A stretch of DNA of 57,163 bases, the filler included, from Candidatus Limnocylindrales bacterium (lineage in GTDB: Bacteria > Moduliflexota > Moduliflexia > Moduliflexales > JAUQPW01): the NCBI GenBank assembly GCA_035559535.1. It is 6 parts of 6 records of this genome, joined end to end, with 100 filler letters (N's around TTAATTAATTAA, not from the genome) between each part and the next. Parts side by side here need not be neighbours in the genome. Positions count along the whole stretch, not along the records: positions 33,146 to 47,655 come from DATMBG010000030.1; 5 more parts are not named here. One strand, written 5' to 3'. The notes beneath the pieces are model-generated. The model made no database searches. It saw nothing but the letters and a program-made list of their open reading frames with translations, and was not told where the DNA came from. Made by a program: the position numbers and the translations under genes. Position 1 is the first letter of the stretch. Each line of letters starts with the position of its first letter. This document shows positions 21,228 through 52,491 of this stretch, in pieces.

Positions 21228-21326
21228 ATTCTTTCAGAAAGGAGGTGGAGAAACGGCAACTAAACCCAGTAATTTATAGGAACCCGAGATAACCATCAAC
21301 CCTTTTCATGAAAGGAGTTTAAGACC

Positions 21327-22597: not shown

Positions 22598-23792
22598 AAT
22601 TTCAATATGGGGTATTCGCCCCGAAGTCGAACTACTCCTGGATTGTGCCAGGACCCATATGGATCCTGAAAGGGCCGAACGAATTAAGAGAATATCGCAG
22701 GAGGGGTTAGACTGGGATTACTTGCTCCGGACGGCGCTGTTGCACAGAACGACGCCGCTTTTGTACTGGCACCTTAACATCCTCTGCCCGGAAGTTGTTC
22801 CGAAAACTATTCTGGATCAACTACGAGACTTTTTTCATGGTAATGTCCGGCGTAATCTTTTCCTGACCGGAGAACTGCTTAAACTCTTGAGCCTGTTGGA
22901 GGTCCATAAAATTACTGCGATTCCCTACAAAGGACCGATTCTGGCTCTGTCTGCATATGGAAATCTTGCCTTTCGGCACTTCGATGATCTGGACATCTTA
23001 ATCCGCAAGCAGGATATCTTGAAGGCCAAGGATCTTTTAATTTCCCAGGGGTACCGGCCGAAATATCCTTTCTTTTCCACACGTGAAGAAGCTTATCTGG
23101 AATTCCATCGACAACTCCCCTTTACCCGGGACGATGGCATAGGGGTGGTAGAGTTACATACGGCAACTACCCAGAAATACCTCTCTTTCCCCGATCCGGA
23201 GTCCTTATGGAGTCGCCTTACTCCGGTATCTTTCCAGGGTACCCAGGTTCTGACGCTCTCTTCCGAGGATTTACTCCTTATTCTCTGTATACATGGGGCC
23301 AAACATTTATGGGAAAGGATAGGATGGATCTGTGATATTGCCGAACTGATTCGAACCCATCCCGACATAGACTGGGAATGGACACTGGAACAGGCCAGGA
23401 CCCTGGGTGGAGAGCGGGCCTTGTTGCTGGGCCTTTATTTAGCTACCGATCTTCTGGGCACTTCCCTTCCCCAGGAAATCTCTCAAAAGCTGTCCGATCC
23501 GGTGGTAAAAAATCTTGCCCGGCGGTTATCCAACAAACTTCTCCAGAAGTCAAACCCTCGACCTGGAATTTTCGAACCCTCCCTTTTCCAACCCCTTTAT
23601 CTCCAGATGCGGGAGCGTTTACAGGACAGGGTTCGATATGGTCTTTATCTTCCCTATCTTGCCATAACCCCGACCCGCGAAGACCATCAATTTCTACCCC
23701 TACCGGCATCTTTCTTTTTTCTTTATTATTTGATTCGGCCAATCCGACTGACCGGAAAGTACTTCTGGAGGCTCTTTCGGCGTCTTCTCTGA
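22578..23792 (+). CDS. Nucleotidyltransferase family protein (NTP_transf_5-like), lasso-associated
   Basis: PYKGP...YG...RHFDDLDILI and LCIHGAKHLWERIGWICDI motifs. TTG 22578 follows GGAGG (alternative ATG at 22551). Confidence 0.85.
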   Translation: MSGISNKISIWGIRPEVELLLDCARTHMDPERAERIKRISQEGLDWDYLLRTALLHRTTPLLYWHLNILCPEVVPKTILDQLRDFFHGNVRRNLFLTGELLKLLSLLEVHKITAIPYKGPILALSAYGNLAFRHFDDLDILIRKQDILKAKDLLISQGYRPKYPFFSTREEAYLEFHRQLPFTRDDGIGVVELHTATTQKYLSFPDPESLWSRLTPVSFQGTQVLTLSSEDLLLILCIHGAKHLWERIGWICDIAELIRTHPDIDWEWTLEQARTLGGERALLLGLYLATDLLGTSLPQEISQKLSDPVVKNLARRLSNKLLQKSNPRPGIFEPSLFQPLYLQMRERLQDRVRYGLYLPYLAITPTREDHQFLPLPASFFFLYYLIRPIRLTGKYFWRLFRRLL

Positions 23793-27268: not shown

Positions 27269-27368
27269 NNNNNNNNNNNNNNNNNNNNNNNNNNNNNNNN
27301 NNNNNNNNNNNNTTAATTAATTAANNNNNNNNNNNNNNNNNNNNNNNNNNNNNNNNNNNNNNNNNNNN
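27269..27368. other. Artificial contig linker
   Basis: N-run around TTAATTAATTAA. Confidence 0.97.
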
Positions 27369-33045: not shown

Positions 33046-33145
33046 NNNNNNNNNNNNNNNNNNNNNNNNNNNNNNNNNNNNNNNNNNNNTTAATTAATTA
33101 ANNNNNNNNNNNNNNNNNNNNNNNNNNNNNNNNNNNNNNNNNNNN
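33046..33145. other. Artificial contig linker
   Basis: N-run around TTAATTAATTAA. Confidence 0.97.
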
Positions 33146-35062
33146 GATGGAGGTAATGAGGCCGGTTTCTTCGGCCAGTCGGATAAAGTTTCCTGGGAGG
33201 ACCAGTCCCAATTCTGGGTGTTGCCAGCGGATCAAGGCTTCCACGCCGACCATCTTTCCGGTTTTGAGATTTACCTGGGGTTGATAGTAAACTGCAAATT
33301 CTTCTCGCTCCACAGTATGACGTAATTGAGCTTCCAGAACCAAGCGTTCAAGAGCCTTCGCATTCATGGTTGAAGTATAAAATCGGTAGCTGTTCCGGCC
33401 CCATTCCTTGGCCCGATACATGGCAGCATCTGCATTCTTTAATAAAGTCTGGGCATCTTTACCATCATTGGGATAGAAGGCAATCCCTAAACTTGTGGTA
33501 ATATGGAGTTCATGTCCATCCAGATAAAAGGGGGGTTTAAGGGTGTCCAGGATTCTTTGAGCAATCCTAGCCGCATCGTCTACCTGATGGATTCTCGGTA
33601 GGAGAATGGTAAATTCGTCGCCCCCCAGGCGGGAGATAATACATTCATCGCTTCCGAAGCGAGAGACGGTATCGCTTCTTCGTAAACAACCTACCAATCG
33701 TTTAGCAATTTCTCGCAACAACCGGTCTCCGAGGGTATGACCCAGGGTATCATTGATGGTTTTAAAGCGATCCAGGTCGAGGAAGATCAGGGCCAACGTT
33801 TGCTGGTTACGAGAAGCCTGGGCCAGGGCCAGATTGAGGCGGTCGTTGAAAAGTAACCGGTTAGGTAGACCGGTGAGGGCGTCATAATACGCAAGTTTCT
33901 TAACCATTTTTTCTGCCCGTTTGCGTTCGGTAATATCCGTCAGTGAGGAGATTACACCGGTAATGGCTCCCTTGGCATCCCGAAGGGGAGCTGCATTGAG
34001 GGATACAATCACTTGAGTTCCGTCAGGACGATGGATGACCTGTTCTACGCCATAAACGGGTTGACCCGTTCGTAGGACTTGAGTGAAGGGCCGCTTCTCA
34101 TCGGGAAAAGGTTTTCCTCGTAGTGTCGTAATTTTCCAATCCTTCATCCTCCTTCCCTCTTTTCCATCCTGGTGGAAGGAAAGCGAAGAGGCCGAAGAGT
34201 GGGATATTCCGTAAATTTTCTCTGCAGCAGCGTTGGCAAAAATAATTCGACCTTCCAGATCTTCTATCAGAATGCCATCAGCAACCGTCTCAACGATACG
34301 TGCCAGACGTTCTTCATTTGCCCGAAGGGCTTCTTCTGCCTGCCTGCGCTCAAACAATTCCTGTTCAATGGAGGTGTATAATCGGGCGTTATCCAGGGCT
34401 ATAGAGGCTAACTCGGCAAACCGGCTCAACAGCTTAACCTCGTCTTCGCTGAAGGTTCGATCTTCCTTAGAATAGGCCAGTCCGATCACCCCTACCGTCT
34501 GGGAATCCGATTTCAGCGGTACCGCTATAACTGCATGAAGGCCCTCACTTCTCATTTCCCCCTTACCCCCTCCTTTACCCTTCCCCCTGCTCTCCTCGTT
34601 TCCCTTCTCCCAACTTGGGAGGGGGGAATAGGAGGAGAGAGATGGAGAGGTGAGAGGGGGGAGGTAAGGAGCAGGTGAACGGCCCCACCAGGTCTGGTAA
34701 TCTTCCACAATCAAAGGCTGACCGGTTTGCCAGATAATTCCTGCGATCCCTTCTCCGGGTTTGAGACGGTGACCTGTATACCGGCTATAAGCCCCCATAC
34801 CTACCTGTAAAACCATCTCGGCTTCTCCCTCTTGAGCCAGGTAGATAAACCCATGAGGTGTTCCCAATAAAGCCCCGGCACGGGAAACAATGGCTTCAAG
34901 CAAGTCGTTCAATTTCAGCCGATTCATCAATCCCAGAGCCGTTTCGTGTAAAGCATCCAGATATTCATTCTGTTGGTTTAGTTTCTCCCTTACTCGCTTA
35001 CGCCGGAAAATTTTTTTGATGATTCGTTTTATCCTCATCTTACGAGCTCCCTCCCTATCCAT
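33146..35062 (-). CDS. GAF-PAS-GGDEF-EAL diguanylate cyclase/phosphodiesterase, 3'-truncated
   Basis: GAF (ASIALDNARL), PAS, DALTGLPNR, GGDEF and VEALIRW. Confidence 0.92.
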
Positions 35063-35137
35063 GCCTTTGGTACATCTTTTTCTGATTGAATATGTCGTTT
35101 ACTATTAATTTTCTATATGAAGAGATTACATCCTGGG

Positions 35138-35410
35138 TAGAGGCGATCCAGCAGGGTCATCCTCCTATAGGTAGCCCCCCCTCGGCTCCTTTCAGGGGTA
35201 ATTTTCTGACCTAACCCCCTTCCCCGCGGGAAGGGGGGATTCGTGAATGACCTGGGTTCCCACTCTCGCTTTCCCTTACGGGGAAGGGAAGTCAGAGGAG
35301 TCAGGTTTAAAAACCTGCCCCAGAAAGCCTAACCCCCTTCCAGGGGAAATTTAGAAGGTTACCTGCCGGATTCCTTCCTCGAGGGAGAAGAGGGGGGGTT
35401 CAGGTCGAAA
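35138..35410. repeat. Cluster of REP-like C-rich/G-rich hairpins
   Basis: CCTAACCCCCTTCCCCGCGGGAAGGGGG, CTTTCCCTTACGGGGAAGGGAAG, CCTAACCCCCCTTCCAGGGG and related units. Confidence 0.55.
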
Positions 35411-35560
35411 ATAAAGCTTTTCCCCTTCTTAACTGGATACGGATGGGACGGTCCCTATCCGTTATGCCACATTTCAACATTGATTTGGTATCATCCTTAC
35501 AGACAGGGCTCCTGGGAAAGGGCTAGGAAAGAAAATCAGGAAGAAGCTATCTAATGCTTC

Positions 35561-35662
35561 GTTATTTCTTTCGGCAGCCCTTCTACCCTGGTGTCAGAGC
35601 ACTTTAGGTCAGTGGCTTTCCGTCCTATGTTTTCACATAGTCTGGCCTTATCGAGAAATAAC
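35561..35662 (-). ncRNA. c-di-GMP-I (GEMM-I) riboswitch
   Basis: Minus strand GTTATTTCTCGATAAGGCCAGACTATGT-GAAA-ACATAGGACGGAAAGCC...CCTAAAG...GGTAG...GGGCTGCCGAAAGAAATAAC. It shows P1, a GAAA tetraloop on P2, the receptor in P3 and the conserved GACGxAAAGCC junction. Confidence 0.88.
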
Positions 35663-35703
35663 TTTCCATGCGCAGCTTTAAAACCTGTTCTGTTAAGATT
35701 AAC

Positions 35704-35719
35704 AGCAACTCCAATGCCA
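35704..35719 (-). promoter_or_regulatory. sigma54 promoter upstream of the riboswitch
   Basis: Minus strand TGGCATTGGAGTTGCT (GG-N10-GC). Confidence 0.7.
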
Positions 35720-36140
35720 AGAAGTTTTTAATCCTGAAGAATTTCTGTAAAGGAATTCTGAGAGTTTTATCTTCCTGGTTTTTTGCGTCTTATGGTTTCC
35801 TGAAAGGCGTCTAGAAATTAGACGTTTAAAACCCAAAACTTTCCGGATGGTCTCCTGGAACTTCAACCGAATACCTCTTTTAGGGGGAAAATAGAGGCTA
35901 ATTACTTTTCAGGATAAAAATACCGGGAATAAAATACGAATTTGATTGTTTTAACTAAAAAACAGGATGAGAACATCAAAATAACAACCTAACATAACCA
36001 GTGAAATCCGATGATGGTGATTCTTACCGGCCGTTTCCCACACAGGCAGGATAGTCGGCCGGGAGGAGAAAGAAACCCTTCCGTACTGAACCTGAAGATT
36101 TTCAGATGAGCCTTTTCCTATTCAACAAAGGAGGTGCGAG

Positions 36141-36881
36141 ATGCGACAAAATAAAAAGATGTGGCTGATACTACCGGCCATTATCATAAGCTTTATGGGG
36201 TCGTTTTCTGCCCAGGCCTATGAAGTTATGGAAGTTAAAGATGGAGGAACCCTAGAGGGAAAAGTAATATTTAAAGGAACCGTTCCTCCTCCTAAGGACG
36301 CCGTTATTACCAAAGATAAGGAAGTCTGCGATAAAGACGGGACCGGGATCAAGAAACTCCCCCAAATTAAGATATCCGGGGATAGTGGGGTCCTGGACGC
36401 TATTGTCTTCATAGACGGGATCGGCAAGGGAAAAGACTGGCCGAAACGGGAGGGAATTCCTTTTATCAACAATAAAAATTGCGAATTTGAGCCCTATGTG
36501 CAGGTGGTTCCTACAGGAACCGACTTCGAAGTGGTCAACAGCGATCCGGTTCTACATAACACCCATTCCTTTATCGATAAACGTACGCTGTTTAATTTGG
36601 CTCTTCCTAATCAAGGCATGCGGATTAAAAAGTCCATGCCTAAGAAACCTGAATTAGTAAGGTTTGAATGCGATGCCCATGGATGGATGTTGGGTTGGGT
36701 TTATGCTTCCGATAATCCTTACTATGCCGTAACAGGTGAGGGGGGAGCGTTTAAAATAGAGAATATTCCACCGGGTACTTATAAGGTTAAGGTATGGCAG
36801 GATTACGTGGGTACAAAAGAACAGGAGGTGACCATTGAGGCGGGGAAAACAACTACGTTAAATGTAGAACTAACTAAATAA
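36141..36881 (+). CDS. Secreted cupredoxin-like / carboxypeptidase-regulatory-like domain protein
   Basis: Signal peptide, NSDPVLHNTH and CDAHGWM (His/Cys/His/Met set), IPPGTYKVKVW. Confidence 0.8.
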   Translation: MRQNKKMWLILPAIIISFMGSFSAQAYEVMEVKDGGTLEGKVIFKGTVPPPKDAVITKDKEVCDKDGTGIKKLPQIKISGDSGVLDAIVFIDGIGKGKDWPKREGIPFINNKNCEFEPYVQVVPTGTDFEVVNSDPVLHNTHSFIDKRTLFNLALPNQGMRIKKSMPKKPELVRFECDAHGWMLGWVYASDNPYYAVTGEGGAFKIENIPPGTYKVKVWQDYVGTKEQEVTIEAGKTTTLNVELTK

Positions 36882-37028
36882 GAAGAAAAGTCCAGGATTC
36901 TGAACCGACCGAGAGTGCAAGCCTCTGCTTCATCCCTTATCCTCCTTTCCTGAAACTTCAGGAAAGGGGAGCAAAGGGGTGAGGTACCAGATGCTCGCAC
37001 TTTCGGATATGAATCAGGAGGGTAAAGT

Positions 37029-38123
37029 ATGGAGAAGGATAAAGAAAAACAAGAGCTTCGAGGGGATTCATCCTTTATGATGACCCGTCGAACATTCCTT
37101 CATAAGACCGTCGTAGCCGGTGTGGCAGTAGGTGCGGCCTCCGTCGGCTGGTTCCCTACCATCAACACGATGGATATTGCCCTCGGTGCAGAAACTTTTA
37201 AGTTTGCCTGGATTTCGGACACCCATCTCTATCCCAAGGATGTTAATACCCGTTTTGTTGAAAAGGCGGTTCGGGCTGCCAAAGAGGTTCAGGCCATGAA
37301 TCCTCCGGCAGACTTCCTCATCTTTGGAGGGGATTTATCCCAATTGGGTGAGAGGGTTGAGCTGGAGTTGGGTAGAGATATTTTATCCGAGATTACAGCC
37401 AAGAAATACTTTATCCCCGGCGAGCATGACTGGTATCTGGATATGGGGGAAACCTGGCGGAAGTTCTTTGGAGAGACTCCCTGGTACTTCGATCATAAAG
37501 GGGTTCGCTTCATCGGATTGAATACGGTGGCCTGGGCTCCGGATTACTGGACAGAGCGGAAATTGACTCCTAAGGAGCGGATGGCGGCTATGGCGACCCT
37601 GGATAGTATTATTGCGGGTCCCTGGGCAGCTGTAGAAAAGGAACAGCGTCAGTGGTTAAACGATAAGGCCTTATCCGGAATTTCCAAAGAAACTCCCATC
37701 GTACTGTTTACCCATACTCCTTTGTATGAGTACTATCCACCCTGGAACTTCTGGACTCGAGACTGGAAAGAGGTTCTAGAGATCCTCAAGCCGTTTAAAA
37801 ATGTAACCAATATTCATGGACATACCCATCAGGTTCTCTATAACGAGATCGGTAATATGCGTTCTATCGGTATGCTGGCGACTTCCTGGCCCTGGCCTTA
37901 TGCGCCCACGGGAGTGCCACCTCTCACCAAGCCCATGATTCGAGTAGACCCAGGAGATCCCTTTGATGGAGTTGGTTGGTCTAAGCTCACGGTAACCGAT
38001 ACCCAAAGAGTTGAAAATGAATATGTGATGTGGCGTAAACAGGTCTTTGCAGAGAGTCCTTCGGATCGTGGCGATGCCGATAACATCAACCAACGTCTGA
38101 CGCCACGTATTGTGGAATTCTAA
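37029..38123 (+). CDS. Tat-exported calcineurin-like metallophosphoesterase
   Basis: TRRTFL Tat motif; SDTH, GGD, GEHD, THTP and GHTH metal motifs. Confidence 0.88.
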   Translation: MEKDKEKQELRGDSSFMMTRRTFLHKTVVAGVAVGAASVGWFPTINTMDIALGAETFKFAWISDTHLYPKDVNTRFVEKAVRAAKEVQAMNPPADFLIFGGDLSQLGERVELELGRDILSEITAKKYFIPGEHDWYLDMGETWRKFFGETPWYFDHKGVRFIGLNTVAWAPDYWTERKLTPKERMAAMATLDSIIAGPWAAVEKEQRQWLNDKALSGISKETPIVLFTHTPLYEYYPPWNFWTRDWKEVLEILKPFKNVTNIHGHTHQVLYNEIGNMRSIGMLATSWPWPYAPTGVPPLTKPMIRVDPGDPFDGVGWSKLTVTDTQRVENEYVMWRKQVFAESPSDRGDADNINQRLTPRIVEF

Positions 38124-38171
38124 AAGAGAAGGAACCTTATCTTTCAACCTTTAGCCAAAGGAGGATGTGCC

Positions 38172-38633
38172 ATGATAAAACAAAAAAAACTCCTGGCCTT
38201 TATAAGTTTATTCATCGGATTTTTGGTATTTTTTTCGGCTCTCCTGTTGAAGGAAATCTGGATCCCACCCTCTGCAGAAGCTCATAAGGAACCTCATACG
38301 CCTCAACAGCTTAAAGCCTTCCAGGATCAGTTCATGGCCATGGTCATCGAAGGGGATAAGCTCTTTCATGGAGGGGGAAGTGTTAAACTCAGCAAGACCG
38401 GAATGGCCTGTGCCATGTGTCACCCCTATGCTTCGGATACACATCCCCATGAGTTCCCCAAGTATCAGGAGCAAATGGGAAAATTTGCCACCCTCCGGGA
38501 TATGATCAACTGGTGCATCGAAAAACCCAACGAAGGGGAGAAGATTGATCCGGAAAGTGACGCCATGAAGGCTCTGGAAGCTTATATTTACTGGTCCAAT
38601 AAGGGTTCCGTTTTGGATCCGGGTCGTCATTAA
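38172..38633 (+). CDS. Monoheme cytochrome c, SoxA/TsdA-domain-like
   Basis: N-terminal membrane/signal helix, CAMCH, FPKY...TLRDMINWC...ESDAMKALEAYI. Confidence 0.8.
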   Translation: MIKQKKLLAFISLFIGFLVFFSALLLKEIWIPPSAEAHKEPHTPQQLKAFQDQFMAMVIEGDKLFHGGGSVKLSKTGMACAMCHPYASDTHPHEFPKYQEQMGKFATLRDMINWCIEKPNEGEKIDPESDAMKALEAYIYWSNKGSVLDPGRH

Positions 38634-38710
38634 AAGACTGAAGAGGCTGGAAACAAGGGGTTAACCGGGCAGGTTTCTAACCTCGGGTTTCCAGCCTCCA
38701 GGTTGATGGT

Positions 38711-39547
38711 ATGTACCCCCTAACCCGACGACGCTTTCTCAAATTTTCGACCCTTTTCGGGATAAGCTGTAGCCTGTCCCTGGAGCCGGTCAAAACCCTG
38801 GCCGAAGAACAGATCCACCGGGTCACCGATGTGGATCACCTTACCGAGTTTGAAAAACTTCATCTTCCCAGGATTACGGCGCCTGATCTGACCGGAAATG
38901 GCCATGTCGTTCCCATTATCGTTGAAATGGATCACCCCATGGAACCGGATCACTATATTAAAAGTATTGAGATTCTCAATCGCAGGGACCCGGTGGTTTC
39001 CAAAGGACGATTCTATATGACCCCGGCCAACGGGGCTGCCTATCTCTCCACGCAGGTTCGTATGCATAGCGGCAGCTCGCAGGTGGAGGTTATTGCAGAA
39101 TGTAATCAGCACGGAACGTGGATTGCCCAAAAGCCGATTACTATCAAAGAAGGAGGGGGCGGATGTGCTACCGAAACCGATGCTCAACAAGAAGAAACCT
39201 TTGATATTCGTCCACCAACCCTTAGAATTCCTCATTTGATCGAGGAAGGAGCTATAGTTGCTGGGGAAATTATCAAAATTCAGGTAAAATTTAAACATCC
39301 TAGCCGAACCGGTTTAAAACTGGTAGACGGGCAGTTCGTTCCGGTTAAGCCCCCTTTTTATGTGAAAACCATGGAGGTCTTTTACGACGGAAATCAAGTC
39401 AGTTTGTATAAGATGACAGAGGCTCTCAGTGACAATCCATTTATCGGATTTAAACTCAGAATCCATAAAGAGGCTCCCCTGCGCATCGTTTTTACGAACA
39501 GTCGGGATCAACGGTTCGAGGTCACTGAGAATTTTAAATTCGGATAA
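38711..39547 (+). CDS. Tat-exported SoxY/desulfoferrodoxin-like plus SoxZ fusion protein
   Basis: TRRRFLK, EKLHLP, HPMEPDHYI, CNQHGTW, GGGGC linker, and the SoxZ-like KHPSRTG...ALSDNPFIGF. Confidence 0.78.
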   Translation: MYPLTRRRFLKFSTLFGISCSLSLEPVKTLAEEQIHRVTDVDHLTEFEKLHLPRITAPDLTGNGHVVPIIVEMDHPMEPDHYIKSIEILNRRDPVVSKGRFYMTPANGAAYLSTQVRMHSGSSQVEVIAECNQHGTWIAQKPITIKEGGGGCATETDAQQEETFDIRPPTLRIPHLIEEGAIVAGEIIKIQVKFKHPSRTGLKLVDGQFVPVKPPFYVKTMEVFYDGNQVSLYKMTEALSDNPFIGFKLRIHKEAPLRIVFTNSRDQRFEVTENFKFG

Positions 39548-39549
39548 AT

Positions 39550-40503
39550 ATGAAAAACCTATACCGGATTCTGGTCCTTTTTCTCTTTCTCAGCTTATGT
39601 GGGATAAATTCGGCTTCTGCCGGTGAACTCTGGATTACCAATCAGTCTTCCAATACCCTTTCCATTATTGATACAGAAACTTATCAAACCCTGGCGACCC
39701 TTCCTTCCGGTGGGAGTGAACCTCACAATATTACCTTTAGTCCTGATGGTAAGGAAGCCTGGGTTTGTCACGTAGGTTCCAACAATGTGGCGGTCTTTGA
39801 TGTAGGCTCCAGAAAACTTTTAACGATACTCCCGGGAGGTAAACGGGCCCATGCGGTTACCTTCACACCGGATGGTCGTTATGCCTACCTGGCCAATCCG
39901 GGCTCCAACGATGTCTGGGTCTTTGAAGCGGCGACTAAAAACCTAATCAAAGTTATTCCGGTGGGTGAAGCCCCCCAGTTAATTACTTTCTCCCGGGACG
40001 GAAAAAAAGCCTTTGTAACCAATAGCAAAAGCGAAGAGGTCTGGGTGTTGGATACGACCAGTTATGAAGTTCTTGCAAAGATTCCGGCAGGAAGGGATGT
40101 GATGGGTTGTGGGACTACCCAGGATAGTCGACATCTCTATGTAACGGCCGGAGGCGATAACGGAGTTGCACTCATCGATACCCTGGCGTATCAAAATGTA
40201 AAGTTTATAGAGACTGGGCTGGATGCCCATGGATTGGTGATTTCCCCCGATGATAAATACGTTTATGTCGCCAATCGGGGAGAGAATACGCTTTCGGTTA
40301 TCGATAGCTCTACCAATCAAGTGATTGGAGCCATTCCGGTTGGGAAAAAGCCGGATATTTTAACCATTTCTCCAGATGGTCACTATGTTTATGTTACCAA
40401 TCGCCTGGAGGATACCATTTCGGTGGTAGATACAGTCTCCAGGCAGGCTCTGAAAGTTATACCGGTAGGAAAGGAACCCCATGGCATTGCTTTAAAACCT
40501 TAA
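39550..40503 (+). CDS. Secreted YVTN-type beta-propeller protein
   Basis: Repeated YVTN/YVAN...IPVG..P blades after a signal peptide. Confidence 0.9.
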   Translation: MKNLYRILVLFLFLSLCGINSASAGELWITNQSSNTLSIIDTETYQTLATLPSGGSEPHNITFSPDGKEAWVCHVGSNNVAVFDVGSRKLLTILPGGKRAHAVTFTPDGRYAYLANPGSNDVWVFEAATKNLIKVIPVGEAPQLITFSRDGKKAFVTNSKSEEVWVLDTTSYEVLAKIPAGRDVMGCGTTQDSRHLYVTAGGDNGVALIDTLAYQNVKFIETGLDAHGLVISPDDKYVYVANRGENTLSVIDSSTNQVIGAIPVGKKPDILTISPDGHYVYVTNRLEDTISVVDTVSRQALKVIPVGKEPHGIALKP

Positions 40504-40560
40504 GGATTGGAAAGAAGAGTGGGATAAGGAAAGACAAAAGGCAAACAGTAGTCCTCTATA

Positions 40561-40742
40561 ACACTGTTTACTTAATTTTGATCTCATGGTACGACTTTCA
40601 CTTCCCAACTCCCCGCTCCCAGCTCTTCCCTCTCTGCCTTCTCCCTCCCTGCATGCGGGGAGGGAAGAGGTGGGGTGGGGGGGGGAGAGGGGCCGGGGGG
40701 TGAGGGCCCTTTAAAAGTCAAGCAAAACTAAGTAAACAGTGT
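40561..40742. mobile_element. Complete MITE-like element, 182 bp
   Basis: 20-bp terminal inverted repeats ACACTGTTTACTTAATTTTG / CAAAACTAAGTAAACAGTGT (19/20 match), internal C-rich/G-rich hairpin, no ORF. Confidence 0.75.
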
Positions 40743-40775
40743 ACTACTTTTACCCTTTGTCTTTCTGTTTTCAGA

Positions 40776-42197
40776 ATGGCCGACGCGGTTGAAGTCAAGC
40801 AAGAGGAACGGGAGCTGGCTCTGGAAGATGAGCTGGTCAACAAATCATTGGTTAAGAAATGGCTTTTATGGGGATTCGTCTGGGTACTCTTCGCCCCGAC
40901 GGTCGGAGTTATTGTCTCCACGAAGTTTAATTACCCGGAATTTTTAGGTAATTCCCCCTATTTTACCTTTGGGCGACTTCGCCCGATTCATGTAAACGGT
41001 GTGATCTTAGGGGTTTTCAGTACCCTTTTCATAGGAATGTGTTATTATGTGGTCCCCCGACTTACCGGAACCCGGGTATATCTGGGAGACAAACTCGGTA
41101 ATATCCTTCTGTGGGTCTGGAATCTGACCCTGGCCGGAGGATTTATTTCCCTGGCTTTTGGATCAAATCAGGGTATCGAGGCCGGAGAAGCTCCTTTAAT
41201 AACCGATATTATTCTGGAAATCTGCTTTTTGATTTTGACGCTCCAATTCTTCGTGACCATTGCCAAACGGCGAGAAGAAAAGCTCTATGTAAGTCTCTGG
41301 TATCTCATCGCAGCCTTTGTCTGGACCGATATAAACTGGGCCTTTGGGAATTTTATCGTTCCATATTCGGTTCCGGGCATCAATAATGCTGCACTGCATG
41401 GACTTTTTATTCATTATGTGGTTGGGCTCTGGATTACTCCGGCCGGATATGTCATGATTTACTATTTTCTACCGGCTTCGGTCCGAAATCCCATTTATAG
41501 CCATAAACTTTCCCTCATCGGATTCTGGTCACTGGCTTTCTTCTATCCCTTTGTAGGAATCCACCATTATCTCTATAGCCCTATCGCAGATTGGGCTGAG
41601 ACCCTTGCCATTGTCAGCAGTATGATGTTAATCATACCGGTTTGGACCGTCATCCAGAACTTCTTCGGGACGATGATCGGGCGATGGTCTCAATTCCATG
41701 AGAATTACACCGCCAAGTTTCTAATCCTGGGATCCATCATGTATCTATTCGGTTGTTTCCAGGGCTCTACAGAAGCTTTACGAAGCCTTCAACAGCCCAC
41801 CCATTTTACAGATTTTGTTATTTCCCATTCACATCTTACAGTATTTGGAACCTTTGTGCTTTGGGTGTTAGGTCCTGCAATTTTTGTATGGCAGCGAATT
41901 ACAGGGCAGGAGTTGTGGAGCTCCCGTATGGCAAACTGGAGTTTCTGGCTCATTACAGCCGGAATTTCCAGCATGGGCATCGGACTCACCTTTGGTGGAT
42001 TACAGCAAGGTTATATGTGGATGAAACAGGTGGAATGGGTAGAGTCTGTGATTGCCACCAAACCTTTCTGGCTTTTCAGAACCTTTTCAGGAATCTCCAT
42101 GGATATTGGAATGTCACTTTTGGTGATTAACTTACTCCTGACAACCAGAGCCAGATCTAGAACTGAGTTGCTGGGACGTACGGTACCCAGTATGTGA
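40776..42197 (+). CDS. ccoN: cbb3-type cytochrome c oxidase subunit I
   Basis: GRLRPIH, FIHYVVG, FFYPFVGIHHY (Tyr plus HH of CuB) and ISHSH heme ligands; about 12 TM helices. Confidence 0.88.
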   Translation: MADAVEVKQEERELALEDELVNKSLVKKWLLWGFVWVLFAPTVGVIVSTKFNYPEFLGNSPYFTFGRLRPIHVNGVILGVFSTLFIGMCYYVVPRLTGTRVYLGDKLGNILLWVWNLTLAGGFISLAFGSNQGIEAGEAPLITDIILEICFLILTLQFFVTIAKRREEKLYVSLWYLIAAFVWTDINWAFGNFIVPYSVPGINNAALHGLFIHYVVGLWITPAGYVMIYYFLPASVRNPIYSHKLSLIGFWSLAFFYPFVGIHHYLYSPIADWAETLAIVSSMMLIIPVWTVIQNFFGTMIGRWSQFHENYTAKFLILGSIMYLFGCFQGSTEALRSLQQPTHFTDFVISHSHLTVFGTFVLWVLGPAIFVWQRITGQELWSSRMANWSFWLITAGISSMGIGLTFGGLQQGYMWMKQVEWVESVIATKPFWLFRTFSGISMDIGMSLLVINLLLTTRARSRTELLGRTVPSM

Positions 42198-42213
42198 GAG
42201 GAGGCCATAGAAC

Positions 42214-43848
42214 ATGCGACATGCCAAAACCGTTGCGGTTATAGCCGGATTTTTATTCATCACCCTGGCGATTTTTGTTCAGGGATTTCTCCCGGCCATG
42301 CTTCCCCAGTCCCGGGAGAAAAGGGTTACCATGGCTGTGAGGACCCATCTGGGAGAGATCAAGTGGGTACAACATGAAGCCACCGATTATACGGAATTGG
42401 AAAAGCTAGGACGACGGGTCTACATCCGAGAAGGGTGTTGGTATTGCCATTCTCAGTATGTAAGACCGGTAGCCGGTGAAGATCAACGTTGGGGACCTGT
42501 CTCTCAGGCCGGAGAATATGCCTTTGATATTCCTCATCTTTTCTCCACCCGCCGCATTGGACCTGATCTGACCCGGGTAGGTTTAAAATACTCCGATGGC
42601 TGGCATTATGCCCATCACTGGGACCCTAGAATGTTGACCCCGGACTCCAACATGCCTTCCTTCCGATGGCTTTTCTATGATCCCATCCGGGTGGCCATAA
42701 AACGGGAGGGAGATACCCTCAGCCTGGATACCGATAACCCGCAGCTTAGAAAAACGTTCACGTTTAATCCAGATAAAGAAATTCATTTAACGCCCAATGA
42801 AGAGGGATTGGCCTTTACCAAGGAAACCGACGGCACGCCGGTTCTATTCTTTGGAAATATGTCCACCGAGTATTTTAAGAAAGATTTTGTGGATATTCTC
42901 ATTCCCCGACAGGATCTACGAGGTTTGATAGCTTATATCCAGAAACTCGGTATGAATCGAGGTAACTGGCGAGATACCTTTGAACCTCAGCGGGTGTTTG
43001 CCACGGAGTTTGAAGTGCCGGAATCGGAGGAATGGATTGCCCGAGGCCGGGAAGTCTATCAGATGCGATGTCAGGGATGCCATGGGGTCAAAGGAGATGG
43101 TAACGGCCCGGCCGCTACCTTCTTCTCTGGAGAATTCCGACCCAGGGACTTTACCAGTGCTACCTTTAAATTCCGGACCACTCCCTCCGGCTCTCTCCCT
43201 ACCAATGGAGATCTTTTGAGGACCATCACCGTGGGGGTACGGGGAACGGCTATGCCAACCTGGCACGAGTTGACCGAAAAGGATCGGCTGGCCGTGATTC
43301 AGTATATTAAAACTTTTTCGGAGTTTTGGAAAGAAGAAACCCCGCTACCGCCCATTGAAATTCCAAAACCACCCCCTGCCAGTCCGGAAATGATTGCCAA
43401 GGGAAAAGAAGCCTTTGAGTCGGCTAAGTGCTGGCAATGCCATGGGAGAGGAGGAAAGGGAGATGGACCTTCTGCCAATGAGCTTAAAGACGATTGGGGG
43501 TTCCCGATCCGCCCGGCCGACTTTACAAGGGGTATTTTTAAGTCGGGACCCGGCGTCCGGGATATCTTCCGGACTATGTCCACCGGGTTAAATGGAACTC
43601 CAATGCCTTCTTATATCGATACCCTTTCGGAAGAGCAACGCTGGCAAATCTCTTACTATGTCTTATCCTTTTCTGCTTATAGGGATCCCCTGCATAATAA
43701 AGAGTATGATATTCCCGAAGCCGTAAAAACTGCCCTGGATTCTCCCGATGTGCAGGCTCCGGATTCCAAACATGCTTTTAACCCTGCCACCTTGAAGAAA
43801 ACGATGGCGGCAACCGTGGAGGATCAGTTGAAAGCGGCGAAAGAGTAA
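42214..43848 (+). CDS. ccoO: cbb3-type oxidase subunit II fused to two extra cytochrome c domains
   Basis: GRRVYIREGCWYCHSQYVRP...RRIGPDL CcoO motif, plus CQGCH and CWQCH. Confidence 0.88.
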   Translation: MRHAKTVAVIAGFLFITLAIFVQGFLPAMLPQSREKRVTMAVRTHLGEIKWVQHEATDYTELEKLGRRVYIREGCWYCHSQYVRPVAGEDQRWGPVSQAGEYAFDIPHLFSTRRIGPDLTRVGLKYSDGWHYAHHWDPRMLTPDSNMPSFRWLFYDPIRVAIKREGDTLSLDTDNPQLRKTFTFNPDKEIHLTPNEEGLAFTKETDGTPVLFFGNMSTEYFKKDFVDILIPRQDLRGLIAYIQKLGMNRGNWRDTFEPQRVFATEFEVPESEEWIARGREVYQMRCQGCHGVKGDGNGPAATFFSGEFRPRDFTSATFKFRTTPSGSLPTNGDLLRTITVGVRGTAMPTWHELTEKDRLAVIQYIKTFSEFWKEETPLPPIEIPKPPPASPEMIAKGKEAFESAKCWQCHGRGGKGDGPSANELKDDWGFPIRPADFTRGIFKSGPGVRDIFRTMSTGLNGTPMPSYIDTLSEEQRWQISYYVLSFSAYRDPLHNKEYDIPEAVKTALDSPDVQAPDSKHAFNPATLKKTMAATVEDQLKAAKE

Positions 43849-43935
43849 TCGGCGGTGAGACCGATAACCTGCGTAAAACGGAATATGCGAGACGTAGCTT
43901 TACGTTTCACGATTCACGTTTTACGCCTTAGATTA

Positions 43936-44130
43936 ATGAAAGATGTCTTTTTACTTGAGTTTCTAACCTTTTATGAGTTTTTTGTAGCCCTTCTCATGGG
44001 TTTTGCCGCTCTATGCTTTTTTATATGGGCTATTCTAACAGGAAATTTCAAAGATGTTGAAGCTATTAAGTATAAGGTCTACGAGATGGAGGTCGTCCAT
44101 GAAGAGGGAAGAAAAGGAAAAAACAGGTGA
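43936..44130 (+). CDS. ccoS: cbb3 oxidase maturation protein CcoS-like
   Basis: Single TM helix followed by FIWAILTGNFKDVE (CcoS W-A-x-x-x-G-Q-F-x-D pattern). Confidence 0.72.
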   Translation: MKDVFLLEFLTFYEFFVALLMGFAALCFFIWAILTGNFKDVEAIKYKVYEMEVVHEEGRKGKNR

Positions 44131-44338
44131 ACAAAGCTCAGATAAAAAATCTACTCCCCCGGTAGAACCTGTGCAGGGGAAGTATGGACCTGTGGAAGAA
44201 TACCACTTCTCAGGCATCCGGGTCTACCATGGTATTGTTAACAAATGGCTCCTTATCGTCTACCTGGTCCTGGTAATATGGGCTCTTTTCTATCTCTTTA
44301 AACATTGGGGAGGACTTGGACCAGGATTGGGATTCTAA
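44099..44338 (+). CDS. Small membrane protein resembling the CcoP N-terminal segment
   Basis: GGAGG RBS; EEYHFSGIRVYHGIVNKWLLIVYLVLVIWALFY resembles the FixP_N pattern. Confidence 0.6.
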   Translation: MKREEKEKTGEQSSDKKSTPPVEPVQGKYGPVEEYHFSGIRVYHGIVNKWLLIVYLVLVIWALFYLFKHWGGLGPGLGF

Positions 44339-44349
44339 AGGAGAAGTTT

Positions 44350-44457
44350 ATGTCCCTGGCAGAAAGAATCGTTTTTATTTTAGCCATCCTGAATCTGATA
44401 TTTCTCGGACTGGAACTGTTATATAACATCTTAAACGCGCTCGTTGCTTATTTATAA
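44350..44457 (+). CDS. 35-aa single-TM protein MSLAERIVFILAILNLIFLGLELLYNILNALVAYL
   Basis: AAGGAG RBS, ATG 44350, TAA 44455-44457; fills the gap inside the cco operon. Confidence 0.6.
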   Translation: MSLAERIVFILAILNLIFLGLELLYNILNALVAYL

Positions 44458-44509
44458 AGACGAGCTTCCTGCTCATGTTTCCGAAAAGTGATTTTTAGAG
44501 GAACGACCT

Positions 44510-46693
44510 ATGGTGTGTAAACATTGCGGGCTTCCTCTACCTTATGCCAGAAGCCGGGACTATCAGATCAGAAACCAGCTCAACATCCCCCCTGGCCCCC
44601 CTCCAGGGGGGATGAAGAACGAAACTGAAAAATCCTCAGAATTCAGGGATTCCCATTCAGAACTGGAAAAGGATCGATTCTGTTGCTATGGTTGTTATAT
44701 TGCCTACCAGGTTGTAGGGGAAAAAGGGGAAGAGGGAGAAGCCTCCTGGAATTTAATCAAGTTAGGATTAGGCGTTTTTTTATCCATGAACGCCATGATG
44801 TTCAACCTGGTGCTTTACTTTGGAGATCTCCGGGAGATAAGTGCGGATCTCCTTCCCCTTATTCATTATCTCCTCTTTGTCCTTTCCACGCTGGTCATGG
44901 GCTTTCTGGGTCTTCCCTTTCTTTATAGCGCCTGGCGAAGTCTCCGACGGGTTTCTTTTACCATGGATAGTTTAATTGCCGTAGGAGCCTTCTCCGCCTA
45001 TTTTTATTCCAGCTATATCACTTTCACCCGGCAACAGGGGGTTTACTTCGATACCGGCAATATGATCCTGGTTCTGGTAACCCTGGGAAGATTCCTGGAG
45101 GCAAAGGCTAAAGCCAGCACTTCGGATTCTATTCGAAAATTTCTTCAATTGGGAGCCTCAGAGGCAACCGTCCTGAAAGATGGAAAAATCCTGAAAGTTC
45201 CGGTCCAGGCTATCCAGGTGGGAGACATCCTCCAGGTTCTGCCTGGAGAAAAAATTCCGGTAGACGGAAGAATTATCCAGGGAGAAACCAGTGTGGATGA
45301 ATCCATGCTCACAGGGGAGTCAAGACCTGTTCAAAAGGGTAAAGACGATAAGGTATTCGGTGCAACCCTTAACCGGGAAGGGTATATCTTGATGGAAGCA
45401 ACCCATGTCGGTCAGGATACCGTCTTATCTCAAATTGTGAGGCTTATGGAACAAGCCCAACTGAGTCGAGCCTCTATCCAAAACCTGGTCGATAAGATTT
45501 CAAATCTGTTTGTTCCGGTTATCTTAAGTATAGCTTTGATAACATTTACGGTATGGTTTTTCAAGGGACATACAGAGGCTGCGTTACTGAACTCCCTGGC
45601 CGTATTACTTATTTCCTGTCCCTGTGCCCTGGGAATTGCAACCCCTATGGTAACCTGTATCGGTATCGGAAGGGCTGCAAGGGAAGGAATTCTTATCAGA
45701 ACCGGGGAGGTTCTGGAAAAACTTCCTCGACTTCAATCCATTTTCTTCGATAAAACGGGAACCCTCACCCAGGGTAAAATGACCCTCTCTTCCTGGTTGA
45801 TAGATCCTTCCTCCGAAGACTATGATGAGAATCAACTCCTGACCCTTGCAGCTTCTTTAGAAACCTGCTCTGAACATTCTTTAGGAAAGAGCATTGTAGA
45901 AGCGGCCAGACAAAGAAATTTGCCCCTTTATAAGGTCTTAGAATTCAAGGTAAAGCCGGGAATGGGTATTCAGGGGAGAATCCTCTGGAAAGAAAATCCG
46001 TTGGTTTACCTGGGTAGTGAGCGTTATTTTCGGGAAAATCATCTTGCCCTCTCAGAGACTCTCTTATCTGAAAAGGAACGGCTCCAATCGGTGGGAAAAA
46101 CGGTCATTTTTTGTGGCTGGCAGGGAAAAGCCCGGGGCCTTTTAAGTTTCTCCGATGAAGTCAGAGAGGAAGCCTATCAGGCTATAAAGGCCTGCCGTCG
46201 GCTGGGATTAGAAGTCTCCATTTTGTCGGGAGATCATCCACTCGTGGCTTATGAGGTCGGCAAAAAGTTAAATATCTCCCGGGTTTACGCTCATTTGCTT
46301 CCTTCTGAAAAAGCGCAGGAAATCCAGAAAGCCCAAAATCAAGGCTACAAAGTAGCTATGGTAGGGGATGGAATTAACGACGCACCCTCCTTAGCTCAGG
46401 CCGATGTAGGGATTGCAATGGGTTCTGGAACGGATCTGGCCAAAGAAACCGCAGATATTAGCATTCTAGGAGGGGATTTGCGAAAGATCCCCTGGGCTAT
46501 TCAGCTGGCCTCTGCCGCTTATAAAAAGATTCAAGAGAATTTATTCTGGGCATTCATCTACAATATCCTGGGTATCGCTCTGGCCGCTTCAGGGGTCCTG
46601 ACCCCTATCCTTTCTGCAGGGATGATGGTGATCAGCAGTCTCTGTGTCATCGGAAATTCCCTGAGGTTACAAAAATTTAACGGTGGTGAGTAA
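44510..46693 (+). CDS. ccoI: Heavy-metal (Cu) P1B-type ATPase, CcoI/FixI-like
   Basis: N-terminal CKHC...FCCYGC, TGES, CPC, DKTGT, YN...MxxSS; located in the cco operon. Confidence 0.85.
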
Positions 46694-46772
46694 GTGAGCA
46701 AGGGAGTAAGGGCCAGGGAGTAAAAAACAAAGGAGCAAAAGGTCGGGGAAACTCACTCCCTTACTCCCTTAC

Positions 46773-47528
46773 TTGCTTACTCCCTGCGATGGGGTGACAT
46801 ATTTTCTTGCTTTCCTTTTTGGCCTCGTAGGGAGCACCCACTGCATTGGAATGTGTGGTCCTATGGTGGTCCTCTATTCAACCCGACCGATTTCTGTCGG
46901 TAGCCTTAAAATGGCTCCACGATCACGGGCCTTTTTGCATCGCCAGCACTTCCTTTTTAACCTGGGTCGGGTAGTCCTTTACACCTATTTCGGATTCATC
47001 TGTGGATTTGTGGGGTATCTCTTCCGTCTTCGCACAGAACTCGAAGGTTACGTCGGTTTATTGGGTGGACTTTTCATCGTCTTCATGGGATTTAGCCTGA
47101 TAGGCTTTTCTCCTCAACTTTCCTTCCTGAATACCCTCCTTTCAAAATCGGCCGGGATCTTCCAGGCCATCTGGAGACAGTATCGCAAACTGGCAGATTC
47201 TTCTGGTGTGTTCCTTCTGGGCTGTGCCCATGGATTCCTCCCCTGTCCCCTCCTCTACACGTTGTTTGCCTTTTCAGCTTCTACCGGAGATCCTTTTCGT
47301 GGGGCTCTCCTCATGCTGGTTTTCAGCCTGGGGACCGTTCCGGCCATGTGGGGACTGGGAATCCTTTCGGGATGGTTCGATGAAAAAAAACGTAATAAAG
47401 TTTTACGCTTTATGGGCTTAGGGATAGCTCTCTGGGGAACAGTTCTTCTGAGCCACGGATTAAAAACTCTGGGTCTCCTTCCCCCTGAAATGTCCCACCG
47501 GATTCCGGAGATCCACTTCTTCCACTAA
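46773..47528 (+). CDS. DsbD_2 / TauE-SafE family membrane protein (cbb3 assembly-associated)
   Basis: HCIGMCGP and GFLPCPLLY motifs; the true start may be GTG 46794. Confidence 0.82.
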   Translation: MLTPCDGVTYFLAFLFGLVGSTHCIGMCGPMVVLYSTRPISVGSLKMAPRSRAFLHRQHFLFNLGRVVLYTYFGFICGFVGYLFRLRTELEGYVGLLGGLFIVFMGFSLIGFSPQLSFLNTLLSKSAGIFQAIWRQYRKLADSSGVFLLGCAHGFLPCPLLYTLFAFSASTGDPFRGALLMLVFSLGTVPAMWGLGILSGWFDEKKRNKVLRFMGLGIALWGTVLLSHGLKTLGLLPPEMSHRIPEIHFFH

Positions 47529-47537
47529 GAAACTACT

Positions 47538-47655
47538 ACACTGTTTACTTAATTTCGATCTCATAGTACTGCTTTCACTTCCCAACTCCCCTCACCCCCA
47601 TCCCCCCTAGCCCCCCAGTTCCCCCTTTCCGTAGGGGCGGGAGGCCTCCCGCCCC
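47538..47655. mobile_element. Left half of the MITE-like element, broken at the contig end
   Basis: ACACTGTTTACTTAATTTCGATCTCATAGTACTGCTTTCACTTCCCAACTCCCC nearly matches the start of the copy at 40561. Confidence 0.72.
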
Positions 47656-47755
47656 NNNNNNNNNNNNNNNNNNNNNNNNNNNNNNNNNNNNNNNNNNNNT
47701 TAATTAATTAANNNNNNNNNNNNNNNNNNNNNNNNNNNNNNNNNNNNNNNNNNNN
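47656..47755. other. Artificial contig linker
   Basis: N-run around TTAATTAATTAA. Confidence 0.97.
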
Positions 47756-52391: not shown

Positions 52392-52491
52392 NNNNNNNNN
52401 NNNNNNNNNNNNNNNNNNNNNNNNNNNNNNNNNNNTTAATTAATTAANNNNNNNNNNNNNNNNNNNNNNNNNNNNNNNNNNNNNNNNNNNN
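52392..52491. other. Artificial contig linker
   Basis: N-run around TTAATTAATTAA. Confidence 0.97.

Follow-up and report, generated by a model that had tools for sequence, protein, structure and literature searches.

A conserved module of exported proteins with a SoxYZ-type carrier, upstream of a divergent cbb3-type oxidase

Introduction

What might be the function of five genes for exported proteins that stand together, on one strand, immediately upstream of ccoN? This is the question raised by positions 36141-40503 (+ strand) of a 57,163-nucleotide stretch of DNA, here called the window, from Candidatus Limnocylindrales bacterium (assembly GCA_035559535.1). The five co-oriented open reading frames (ORFs) encode a cupredoxin-like protein (Cup), a metallophosphoesterase (MPE), a monohaem cytochrome (CytA), a SoxY-SoxZ fusion (YZ) and a β-propeller (Prop). 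The first-pass annotation of the window had described them as a minimal analogue of the Sox cycle, which would load, carry and hydrolyse a sulfur or other oxyanion adduct and pass the electrons to a high-affinity oxidase.

The window is made up of six short contigs (C19, C24, C28, C30, C53 and C56) joined by N spacers (paired 44-N) at 14697-14796, 27269-27368, 33046-33145, 47656-47755 and 52392-52491, and genes separated by a spacer need not adjoin one another in the genome. All of the locus described here is on a single contig, C30 of this genome (G000), which occupies positions 33146-47655, and only that stretch is true genomic context.

The explanation that we favour, and hold with moderate confidence, is that the locus could be a non-canonical, Sox-related front end for sulfur oxidation, acting as an optional electron donor to a divergent cbb3 oxidase. 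The evidence for this proposal is set out below, together with the points that weigh against it and the other explanations that deserve consideration.

Conservation of the gene neighbourhood

The gene neighbourhood was surveyed in two ways. A survey seeded with the carrier gave 30 loci, one genome per species, 19 of them with a fused YZ. At these 19 loci MPE lies directly upstream in 17, a complete cytochrome is present in 18 and Cup in 14; one of the two loci with no upstream MPE starts at the cytochrome, and the other (L023) has lost the trio Cup-MPE-CytA, leaving a 30-residue remnant of the cytochrome. Downstream, ccoN and a gene for CcoO-P are next after the fused YZ at 15 of the 16 loci that have sequence there, the exception being L011, which has no ccoN within 3.4 kb. 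A second survey, seeded with MPE, also gave 30 loci, the locus of one unpublished genome being excluded. Cup is adjacent in 27 of these, CytA in 28 and YZ in 27, and all four genes are together in 24, the misses being mostly at contig ends. Co-occurrence elsewhere had been named beforehand as a test of the first-pass annotation, and the result is very strong. Cup-MPE-CytA-YZ is not a chance neighbourhood; it is a conserved, uncharacterised module.

The hosts of the module are Methylomirabilota/Rokubacteria, Entotheonella, another small phylum and the pSymA plasmid of Sinorhizobium. One carrier-seeded locus, in an unclassified metagenome-assembled genome (MAG), is 96% identical to the window. 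Across the loci the identities are 61-73% for MPE, 52-77% for CytA, 39-58% for YZ and 42-53% for Cup. All five genes can also be found in a different order, YZ...Prop-Cup-MPE-CytA-CcoN, at two loci (L127 and L128), and a partial Prop ORF precedes Cup-MPE-CytA-YZ at three others (L060, L067 and L069).

The same trio is also found with other carriers. On pSymA of Sinorhizobium meliloti, Cup-MPE-CytA (the MPE being 62% identical) lies beside SoxY, SoxZ, a cytochrome c and an FCSD/SQR-like flavoprotein. This SoxY has an NGCL arm and is without the ligands of superoxide reductase (SOR) that are described below for YZ, and the SoxZ is above its cut-off; SCO, hemA, groEL, a CcoN of the same type and a 554-aa CcoO-P are encoded ~5 kb from the trio. 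In the genome G282 the order is CcmF, Cup-MPE-CytA-CcoN-CcoOP-DsbD2-CcoI-SoxY-SoxZ-SCO, and its SoxY (P0241) is of the split form, with an NGC arm and with the SOR ligands absent. In a further genome, G297, both trio and oxidase are present, and SoxY is ~8.5 kb away. Across lineages, therefore, three SoxY/SoxZ subtypes accompany the same trio: the fused SOR-like form, and the split NGC-arm forms of Sinorhizobium and of G282. An unfused SOR-like Y has a different partner: at L025 the order is Prop, Y, a SoxB-like gene (410.5 bits to TIGR04486, cut-off 550), Z and a cytochrome c, with genes for TauE- and YeeE-type transporters upstream, in a genome that has no MPE of this kind. The occurrence of three carrier subtypes with one trio, together with the pairing of the nearest unfused carrier relatives with a SoxB-like enzyme, provides the strongest arguments for carrier-based sulfur chemistry.

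The carrier, the cytochrome and the other exported proteins

YZ (38711-39547, +; 278 aa) carries the twin-arginine (Tat) motif TRRRFL, and matches both SoxY (PF13501, 73.4 bits, cut-off 28.4) and SoxZ (PF08770, 53.9 bits). A profile built from 38 homologues matches SoxZ (4uwq_C, 2.6e-8), SOR (2amu, 4e-7) and SoxY (4uwq_B, 1.9e-6). The structural model (pLDDT 87.8) gives the same three folds in Foldseek, with target TM-scores of 0.81-0.84 to the SoxZ structures 1v8h, 2oxh and 2ox5, and with neelaredoxins at 26-28% identity. The arm, GGGGC, occupies residues 148-152, ahead of a linker and the SoxZ domain; YZ does not have the SoxY-type GGCGG arm at the very C-terminus of a separate subunit. The arm cysteine, Cys152, whose conservation the first-pass annotation had made a further test, is present in 121 of 121 sequences, and 37 unfused relatives end in VAAGGC-COOH.

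It is worth adding that the same carrier subfamily is found in another setting. In two Nitrospiraceae MAGs (L014, 4767-12156, and L020, 5287-12237) tandem SoxA/TsdA-type cytochromes, two or three in number, are encoded together with CcoO-like dihaem cytochromes, a split SOR-like SoxY with SoxZ, propellers of the BNR and YVTN types, a small cytochrome c and a Ycf48-like protein; MPE and an oxidase are both absent. This arrangement around the carrier subfamily is likewise unstudied.

CytA (38172-38633, +; 153 aa) starts with a hydrophobic helix and has a single haem site, CAMCH, and an INWC segment. It matches the SoxA/TsdA family (PF21342, 42.7 bits, cut-off 27), and its alignments to solved structures are solely to SoxA (1h31, first haem domain) and TsdA (4wq7). 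The Cys of INWC is opposite the Cys of MINAC in SoxA 1h31, which we take to be a haem axial ligand, and none of the 19 sequences deviates from MACAMCH or TLRDMINWCIEK. CytA has the features of a SoxA/TsdA haem domain, namely CxxCH and a conserved Cys at the axial position, and its haem is predicted to be His/Cys-ligated.

Cup (36141-36881, +; 246 aa) has a Sec signal, read from the sequence. The motif HNTH...CDAHGWM is invariant in 16 of 16 aligned sequences, with a C-x2-H-x2-M spacing that is presumably of the amicyanin type. The C-terminus is a CarboxypepD_reg domain (PF13620, 41.2 bits, residues 192-245), and the N-terminal 164 residues have no Pfam match even at E 10. There is a weak PDB match to the type-1 copper protein 5fc9 (E 0.062), and one of the neighbouring clusters in the Atlas bears the name 'Blue (Type 1) copper domain protein'. 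The motif and the weak match to 5fc9 suggest that Cup is a Sec-exported protein with a cupredoxin-like N-terminal domain.

Prop (39550-40503, +; 317 aa), again with a Sec signal read from the sequence, is a seven-bladed YVTN β-propeller that passes TIGR03866 (293.7 bits, cut-off 287.3); the ABC-transporter/PQQ context that defines this model is not on the contig. Prop adjoins the module at seven loci (L002, L003, L060, L067, L069, L127 and L128) and adjoins split Y/Z genes at others (L014, L018, L020 and L024-L029). It is an accessory and not a core member of the module. Further YVTN propeller paralogues occur in the genome, one of them near two PQQ alcohol dehydrogenase genes.

The gaps between Cup, MPE, CytA, YZ and Prop are 147, 48, 77 and 2 bp, and Prop is separated from ccoN by 272 bp. 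A scan of 35000-47655 for promoters and terminators gave counts not above those of shuffled sequence, and found no terminator-like site in the 272-bp gap 5' of ccoN. Co-orientation and short gaps are the basis on which the module would be read as an operon.

As a description of the locus the first-pass annotation has stood up well. The five genes are at the stated coordinates, all on the + strand of one contig and just 5' of the cco genes, and the SoxA/TsdA-like monohaem cytochrome with INWC, the Tat SoxY-SoxZ fusion with its GGGGC arm, the Tat dimetal metallophosphoesterase (see below) and the β-propeller are all confirmed by family matches, motifs or alignments to solved structures.

A proposed pathway and its genomic setting

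The genome is 5.6 Mb in size and 95.8% complete. It contains no SoxB (best score 170 bits, cut-off 550), no SoxC (best 170 bits, cut-off 420) and no FCSD domain in genome-wide searches. The gene for YZ is the single SoxY-domain gene of the genome, and the gene for CytA is the single SoxA/TsdA-domain gene. There is no SoxX-like gene within the cluster; for SoxX a genome-wide search was not made. The first-pass annotation saw no canonical soxB, soxX or soxCD in the window; for SoxB and SoxC the genome-wide searches give the same result.

The pathway that we propose would work as follows. YZ would hold a sulfur adduct on Cys152 of its flexible arm. CytA, with its predicted His/Cys haem, would form or oxidise this adduct, with two electrons per step. 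MPE would act on the bound sulfur, either by hydrolysing off sulfate in the manner of SoxB or by serving as a redox-active two-metal centre. Cup would then pass electrons to the c-haems of CcoO-P, and so to oxygen. We infer these steps, every one of them, and the substrate, which could be thiosulfate, sulfide/sulfane or sulfite, from what was observed: gene content, motifs and their conservation, folds, synteny and co-occurrence.

The metallophosphoesterase

MPE (37029-38123, +; 364 aa) carries the twin-arginine motif TRRTFL and matches PF00149 at 53.2 bits. It has 1914 homologues, the best 120 of which are at 65-98% identity, and in the databases these homologues are named CpdA/Icc. The motifs SDTH, GGD, GEHD, FTH and HGHTH are invariant in 27 of 27 sequences, and agree with the metal motifs of the metallophosphoesterase superfamily, with GEHD replacing GNHD; the Glu concerned, E132, is likewise invariant (27/27). 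This change from Asn to Glu in motif III would add negative charge at the second metal. The best Foldseek matches are GpdQ (3d03, E 4.9e-12) and Rv0805, with purple acid phosphatases also near, and the nearest solved relatives by sequence are the same. Compared with GpdQ and Rv0805 there are ~90 extra residues at the C-terminus, many positions of which are invariant. The model has a mean pLDDT of 65.5 and is poor over the C-terminal ~80 residues (beyond 288, pLDDT < 50), for which nothing is claimed. From its sequence and fold, MPE is assigned, as a Tat-exported enzyme, to a GpdQ/Rv0805-like branch, and is not SoxB-like.

This assignment is the first of several points that weigh against a Sox-type cycle. 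MPE has no match to SoxB at E 0.01, and no 5'-nucleotidase C-domain (PF02872), does not resemble the SoxB-like protein of L025 in a pairwise comparison, and has as its nearest folds those just described. Every Sox-family equivalog model is below its cut-off: SoxY (TIGR04488, 57.1 bits, cut-off 125), SoxZ (TIGR04490, 43.6 bits, cut-off 76), SoxA (TIGR04484, 39.1 bits, cut-off 110) and the quinoprotein-dehydrogenase-associated SoxYZ (TIGR04557, 91.7 bits, cut-off 140). In the comparison of profile scores that the first-pass annotation had suggested, the Pfam domains of SoxY, SoxZ and SoxA/TsdA all match, the equivalogs stay below their cut-offs, and SoxB is not matched. There is no SoxX in the cluster (within the limits of the search given above) and no SoxCD or FCSD in the genome. 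The conserved SOR-type ligands of the carrier are not explained by a Sox-type mechanism. Finally, there is a second class of MPE-CytA pairs, at 46-53% identity, that has no SoxYZ at all within 15 kb. One such pair (L129, 5837-14339, in Methylomirabilota G062) lies between the gene for a CCP_MauG dihaem enzyme and genes for Rieske and cytochrome b proteins, and a 29%-identical Burkholderia relative has retained GEHD, with an amicyanin-like ORF next after its gene. The second-class pairs with no carrier, and the Burkholderia relative, suggest for MPE a redox role in which neither carrier nor sulfur need take part.

Three further observations were made on these relatives. The neighbourhood of L129 also contains a 908-aa multihaem cytochrome, with no SoxYZ nearby. 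In Burkholderia stagnalis an apparent fusion of MPE and cupredoxin (L112:3880-5136) was rejected, as the MPE is in another frame, at 3275-4777, and the amicyanin-like ORF follows the MPE gene. A relative on a Methylocystis plasmid, with 41% identity, stands alone.

Taken together, these contexts suggest that MPE works with electron carriers, either because it has a redox centre of its own or because it is a hydrolase whose metals need redox upkeep. MPE may not be a hydrolase of the SoxB kind but a redox partner. Since MPE is not SoxB-like, and since the MPE-CytA pair also occurs with no carrier, hydrolysis of an adduct by MPE is a proposal only. The minimal analogue of the Sox cycle in the first-pass annotation is supported in part: it draws strength from the three carrier subtypes found with the trio, from the FCSD/SQR-like flavoprotein and cytochrome c that join the set in Sinorhizobium, and from the carrier relatives beside a SoxB-like gene, and loses it where MPE would have to act as a hydrolase of the SoxB kind.

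The most probable of the alternatives, unlikely as we judge it to be, is that MPE-CytA is a periplasmic redox enzyme in its own right, with a two-metal centre and a thiolate-ligated haem. Its substrate would be either a partner protein or a small molecule that contains no sulfur; Cup, the MauG-type enzyme and the bc1-type complex would be interchangeable electron links, and SoxYZ would be one of several optional partners, for example a carrier of electrons or metal by way of its SOR-type site. MPE-CytA is indeed the most constant adjacency (28/30 loci) and has the best-conserved sequences, and the invariant change in motif III, with the extra negative charge that we expect at the second metal, fits such an enzyme, as do the second-class pairs and the distant relative that keeps GEHD. 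There is also a possible parallel in Burkholderia, where bthA (MauG-like) is reported to adjoin phosA, for a putative purple acid phosphatase, in every case, and the authors consider that BthA may oxidise PhosA (PMC6405878). Against a redox enzyme of this kind, the high-identity class is nearly always found with some SoxY/SoxZ carrier, three subtypes of which have been recruited, and no neighbourhood offers a candidate for a non-sulfur substrate. Moreover, the SoxA/TsdA haem family, to which the PDB matches assign CytA, is to our knowledge known from sulfur chemistry only.

A bolder version of the favoured Sox-related pathway can be drawn from the same features, and we think it rather improbable. 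Here MPE-CytA would be a novel periplasmic oxidoreductase, in which a redox two-metal centre (Glu for Asn) and a thiolate-ligated haem oxidise and release carrier-bound sulfane sulfur. Cup-MPE-CytA-SoxYZ would then form a complete, molybdenum-independent pathway of the Sox type that replaces SoxX, SoxB and SoxCD, is wired to its own cbb3 oxidase, and owes its spread among phyla of soil and the subsurface to gene transfer.

The link to the cbb3 oxidase

CcoN (40776-42197, +) matches PF00115 at 245 bits, and TIGR00780 at 244.8 bits, below the cut-off of 583. It can be aligned over its full length with the CcoN chains of solved cbb3 oxidases (E 1.7e-52), with agreement at the His residues of the HH pair, at the Tyr that precedes this pair and at the remaining conserved His residues. 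On this alignment CcoN is assigned as the catalytic subunit of a divergent cbb3-type haem-copper oxidase. Four haem-copper oxidases are encoded in the genome, and this CcoN is the sole C-type one. It is followed by a CcoO fused to two more c-type cytochrome domains, here called CcoO-P-like (42214-43848, +; PF02433 143.8 bits, NF011054 187.7 bits).

In the phylum of the window, MPE and the CcoN clade are found in the same two of nine genomes, both of the window's genus, which fits joint acquisition in this lineage. The picture in Methylomirabilota is more varied. Among 251 genomes, MPE is found in 38, the CcoN clade in 76 and both in 25 (these tallies include unpublished genomes, G228 in both and G229 in that of CcoN). 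No MPE match was found in 51 of the 76 genomes with the CcoN clade; in a sample of 14 of these 51, nothing of the module is upstream in 12, and there are remnants in two. Conversely, 13 of the 38 MPE genomes have no match to the CcoN clade, and six of these have high-identity modules, three of them preceded by a propeller gene. Incompleteness of the MAGs weakens the counts on both sides. At two Methylomirabilota loci, L116 and L121, remnants of YZ (and in L121 of CytA also) lie directly upstream of ccoN with no MPE, and these remnants suggest secondary loss of the module.

The module-cbb3 link is frequent, and it is not obligatory. The presence of the oxidase clade with no module, and of MPE with no oxidase clade, argues for an optional donor module and against a role in assembly. 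The proposed passage of electrons to the cbb3 oxidase, as first annotated, is favoured by the 15 of 16 fused-YZ loci where ccoN and ccoO-P come next. The same counts bear on a further explanation, in which the module would serve this cbb3 clade as an accessory, for delivery of copper or haem, or for sulfide protection or repair, and not an energy-yielding donor. What speaks for an accessory is the shared operon with ccoN, ccoO-P, the P-type ATPase and DsbD_2, the SCO genes near the module in L044 and L097, the conserved His/Met/Cys-rich sites in the carrier, and the restriction of both module and oxidase, within the phylum, to the same two genomes. However, an accessory would not be expected to be missing from 51 of 76 Methylomirabilota genomes with the clade, with nothing upstream in 12 of the 14 sampled, nor to occur in 13 genomes that have MPE and no CcoN clade; even with these counts weakened as stated, we consider this explanation very unlikely.

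The superoxide reductase-like site of the carrier

The SoxY half of YZ has a feature that was absent from the first-pass annotation. It matches desulfoferrodoxin (PF01880, 48.4 bits, cut-off 22.2), and H51, H75, H81, C131 and H134, which we take to be equivalent to the iron ligands of SOR, align with the ligand motifs of 2amu and would make up a full Fe(His)4Cys set. In the 121 sequences C131 is found in 121, H81 in 119, H134 in 117, H75 in 116 and H51 in 99. In the full-text literature we found no paper linking SoxY with desulfoferrodoxin in this way.

It could therefore be asked whether the carrier is a Tat-exported superoxide reductase that guards the periplasm from reactive oxygen, with Cup and CytA as its reductants. 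All five ligands are present, aligned and conserved (99-121 of 121), the Foldseek matches include neelaredoxins at 26-28% identity, and a TAT-SOR class has been described (PMC3116461). Yet the arm cysteine and the SoxZ half are equally invariant and have no part in SOR chemistry, the trio also pairs with carriers that lack the ligands (SoxY of S. meliloti and P0241), YZ is below the cut-off of the SOR model TIGR00332 (39 against 61.9), and there is no place for MPE in such a system. A superoxide reductase we consider very unlikely, too. We infer instead that the SOR-type metal site would be an extra of this carrier subfamily that the Cup-MPE-CytA trio does not need.

That MPE is an ordinary periplasmic phosphatase or phosphodiesterase in a coincidental neighbourhood is scarcely credible: its homologues are named CpdA/Icc, its nearest solved folds are phosphodiesterases and phosphatases and the 41%-identical Methylocystis relative stands alone, but the adjacency to CytA and Cup is kept over several phyla, no pho or pst genes occur in any annotated neighbourhood, and 61-73% identity between phyla is in our judgement unusual for a scavenging phosphatase. 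An ordinary phosphatase with no affinity for the carrier would have refuted the first-pass annotation; the context of MPE is not that of an ordinary phosphatase.

Surroundings of the locus

Downstream of the CcoO-P-like gene are two small overlapping ORFs (43855-44338, +) of 91 and 94 aa, with hydrophobic segments and with no Pfam match, which are possible CcoS/CcoQ-like proteins. They are followed by a P-type ATPase gene in the operon position of CcoI/FixI (44510-46693, +; PF00122 203.9 bits, and PF00702) and by a gene for a DsbD_2 family membrane protein (46773-47528, +; PF13386 155.2 bits). The P-type ATPase and DsbD_2 genes are kept downstream in L004, L005, L097, L127 and L044.

Upstream of Cup is a spacer of 1.08 kb, which contains a c-di-GMP-I riboswitch aptamer (RF01051) at 35570-35656 on the - strand (73.2 bits, E 4e-13). 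It points toward the divergent gene at 33098-35062 (-), whose translation is read as a GAF/PAS-GGDEF-EAL protein, and this gene for a c-di-GMP enzyme may itself be under c-di-GMP control. The spacer between it and Cup also has a 14-nt direct repeat, CCTAACCCCCTTCC, at 35210-35223 and 35328-35341, and G/C-rich inverted repeats.

On another contig of the window, four consecutive genes at 18895-23792 (+) encode a transglutaminase-like protein (PF13471), an asparagine-synthase-like protein (PF00733), an HPr-kinase-C-like protein and an NTP_transf_5 protein. In these domains the row resembles a lasso-peptide biosynthesis cluster.

Implications

If the favoured Sox-related pathway is correct, it would be a second, differently built route for the oxidation of reduced sulfur on a SoxYZ-type carrier, present in Methylomirabilota/Rokubacteria and Entotheonella, on the symbiosis plasmids of rhizobia and in further lineages. 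At present such genomes would be recorded as 'SoxY only' in gene-based surveys, or be overlooked. The very highly conserved exported metallophosphoesterases that databases name CpdA/Icc would gain a function, superoxide reductases and SoxY carriers would be linked, and a cbb3 oxidase clade that is as yet unstudied would have its dedicated donor. As pSymA of S. meliloti carries the set, the hypothesis is directly testable in a tractable and harmless organism.

Comparison with known systems

In the full-text literature, a search that leaves most subscription journals outside, no paper describing this gene set was found. The nearest known system is the Sox system of Paracoccus, Rhodovulum and Thermus. 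Both have a Tat-exported carrier of the SoxY/SoxZ fold with a Gly-rich arm ending in an invariant Cys, a cytochrome of the SoxA family with a Cys at the axial-ligand position, and a Tat-exported two-metal enzyme of the metallophosphoesterase superfamily, and in both (here as a proposal) electrons would go to a c-type cytochrome oxidase. The differences are that here SoxY and SoxZ are fused with the arm internal, and the SoxY half has SOR-type ligands; that a blue-copper-type protein is in the gene set in place of SoxX, and there is no SoxCD; and that the enzyme of hydrolase fold is GpdQ/Rv0805-like, has no 5'-nucleotidase C-domain and has GEHD for GNHD. CytA resembles TsdA in its haem domain with a conserved Cys, its match to PF21342 and its alignment to 4wq7, but it has one haem in 153 aa and is paired with MPE, whereas TsdA has two haems.

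Fusions of SoxY and SoxZ have been reported beside PQQ dehydrogenases and xoxF/fdh (PMC11237559). The quinoprotein-dehydrogenase-associated SoxYZ (TIGR04557; SoxYZ-S2/S4 of that paper) shares with YZ the fused architecture and an adjoining YVTN propeller that passes TIGR03866. YZ differs in its score to TIGR04557 (91.7 against 140 bits) and in its context, which is Cup-MPE-CytA-cbb3, with no PQQ dehydrogenase, xoxF or fdh on contig C30; elsewhere in the genome (for example C44:185777-189609 and C44:71082-72662) at least 11 genes for PQQ-dependent alcohol dehydrogenases pass the cut-off of TIGR03075.

With the superoxide reductases (neelaredoxin, and the TAT-SOR class of SORGOdb; PMC3116461), YZ has in common an Ig-like fold, the motifs EK-x-H-x-P, HPxxxxH and CNxHG, and a Tat signal. 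It adds to these a C-terminal Cys arm and a SoxZ domain, within a Sox-like gene set, and its iron site is a predicted one. The BthA-PhosA pair of Burkholderia is similar in that an exported two-metal protein of phosphatase fold is obligately encoded beside a c-type haem enzyme (PMC6405878); there, the haem partner is a MauG-like dihaem protein and not a SoxA-type monohaem cytochrome. Lastly, GpdQ of Enterobacter and Rv0805 of Mycobacterium are the closest solved folds to the core of MPE and share its metal motifs. They differ from it in that the identity is 16-18%, and in that MPE carries a Tat signal, has Glu for Asn in motif III and is encoded in a neighbourhood of redox proteins.

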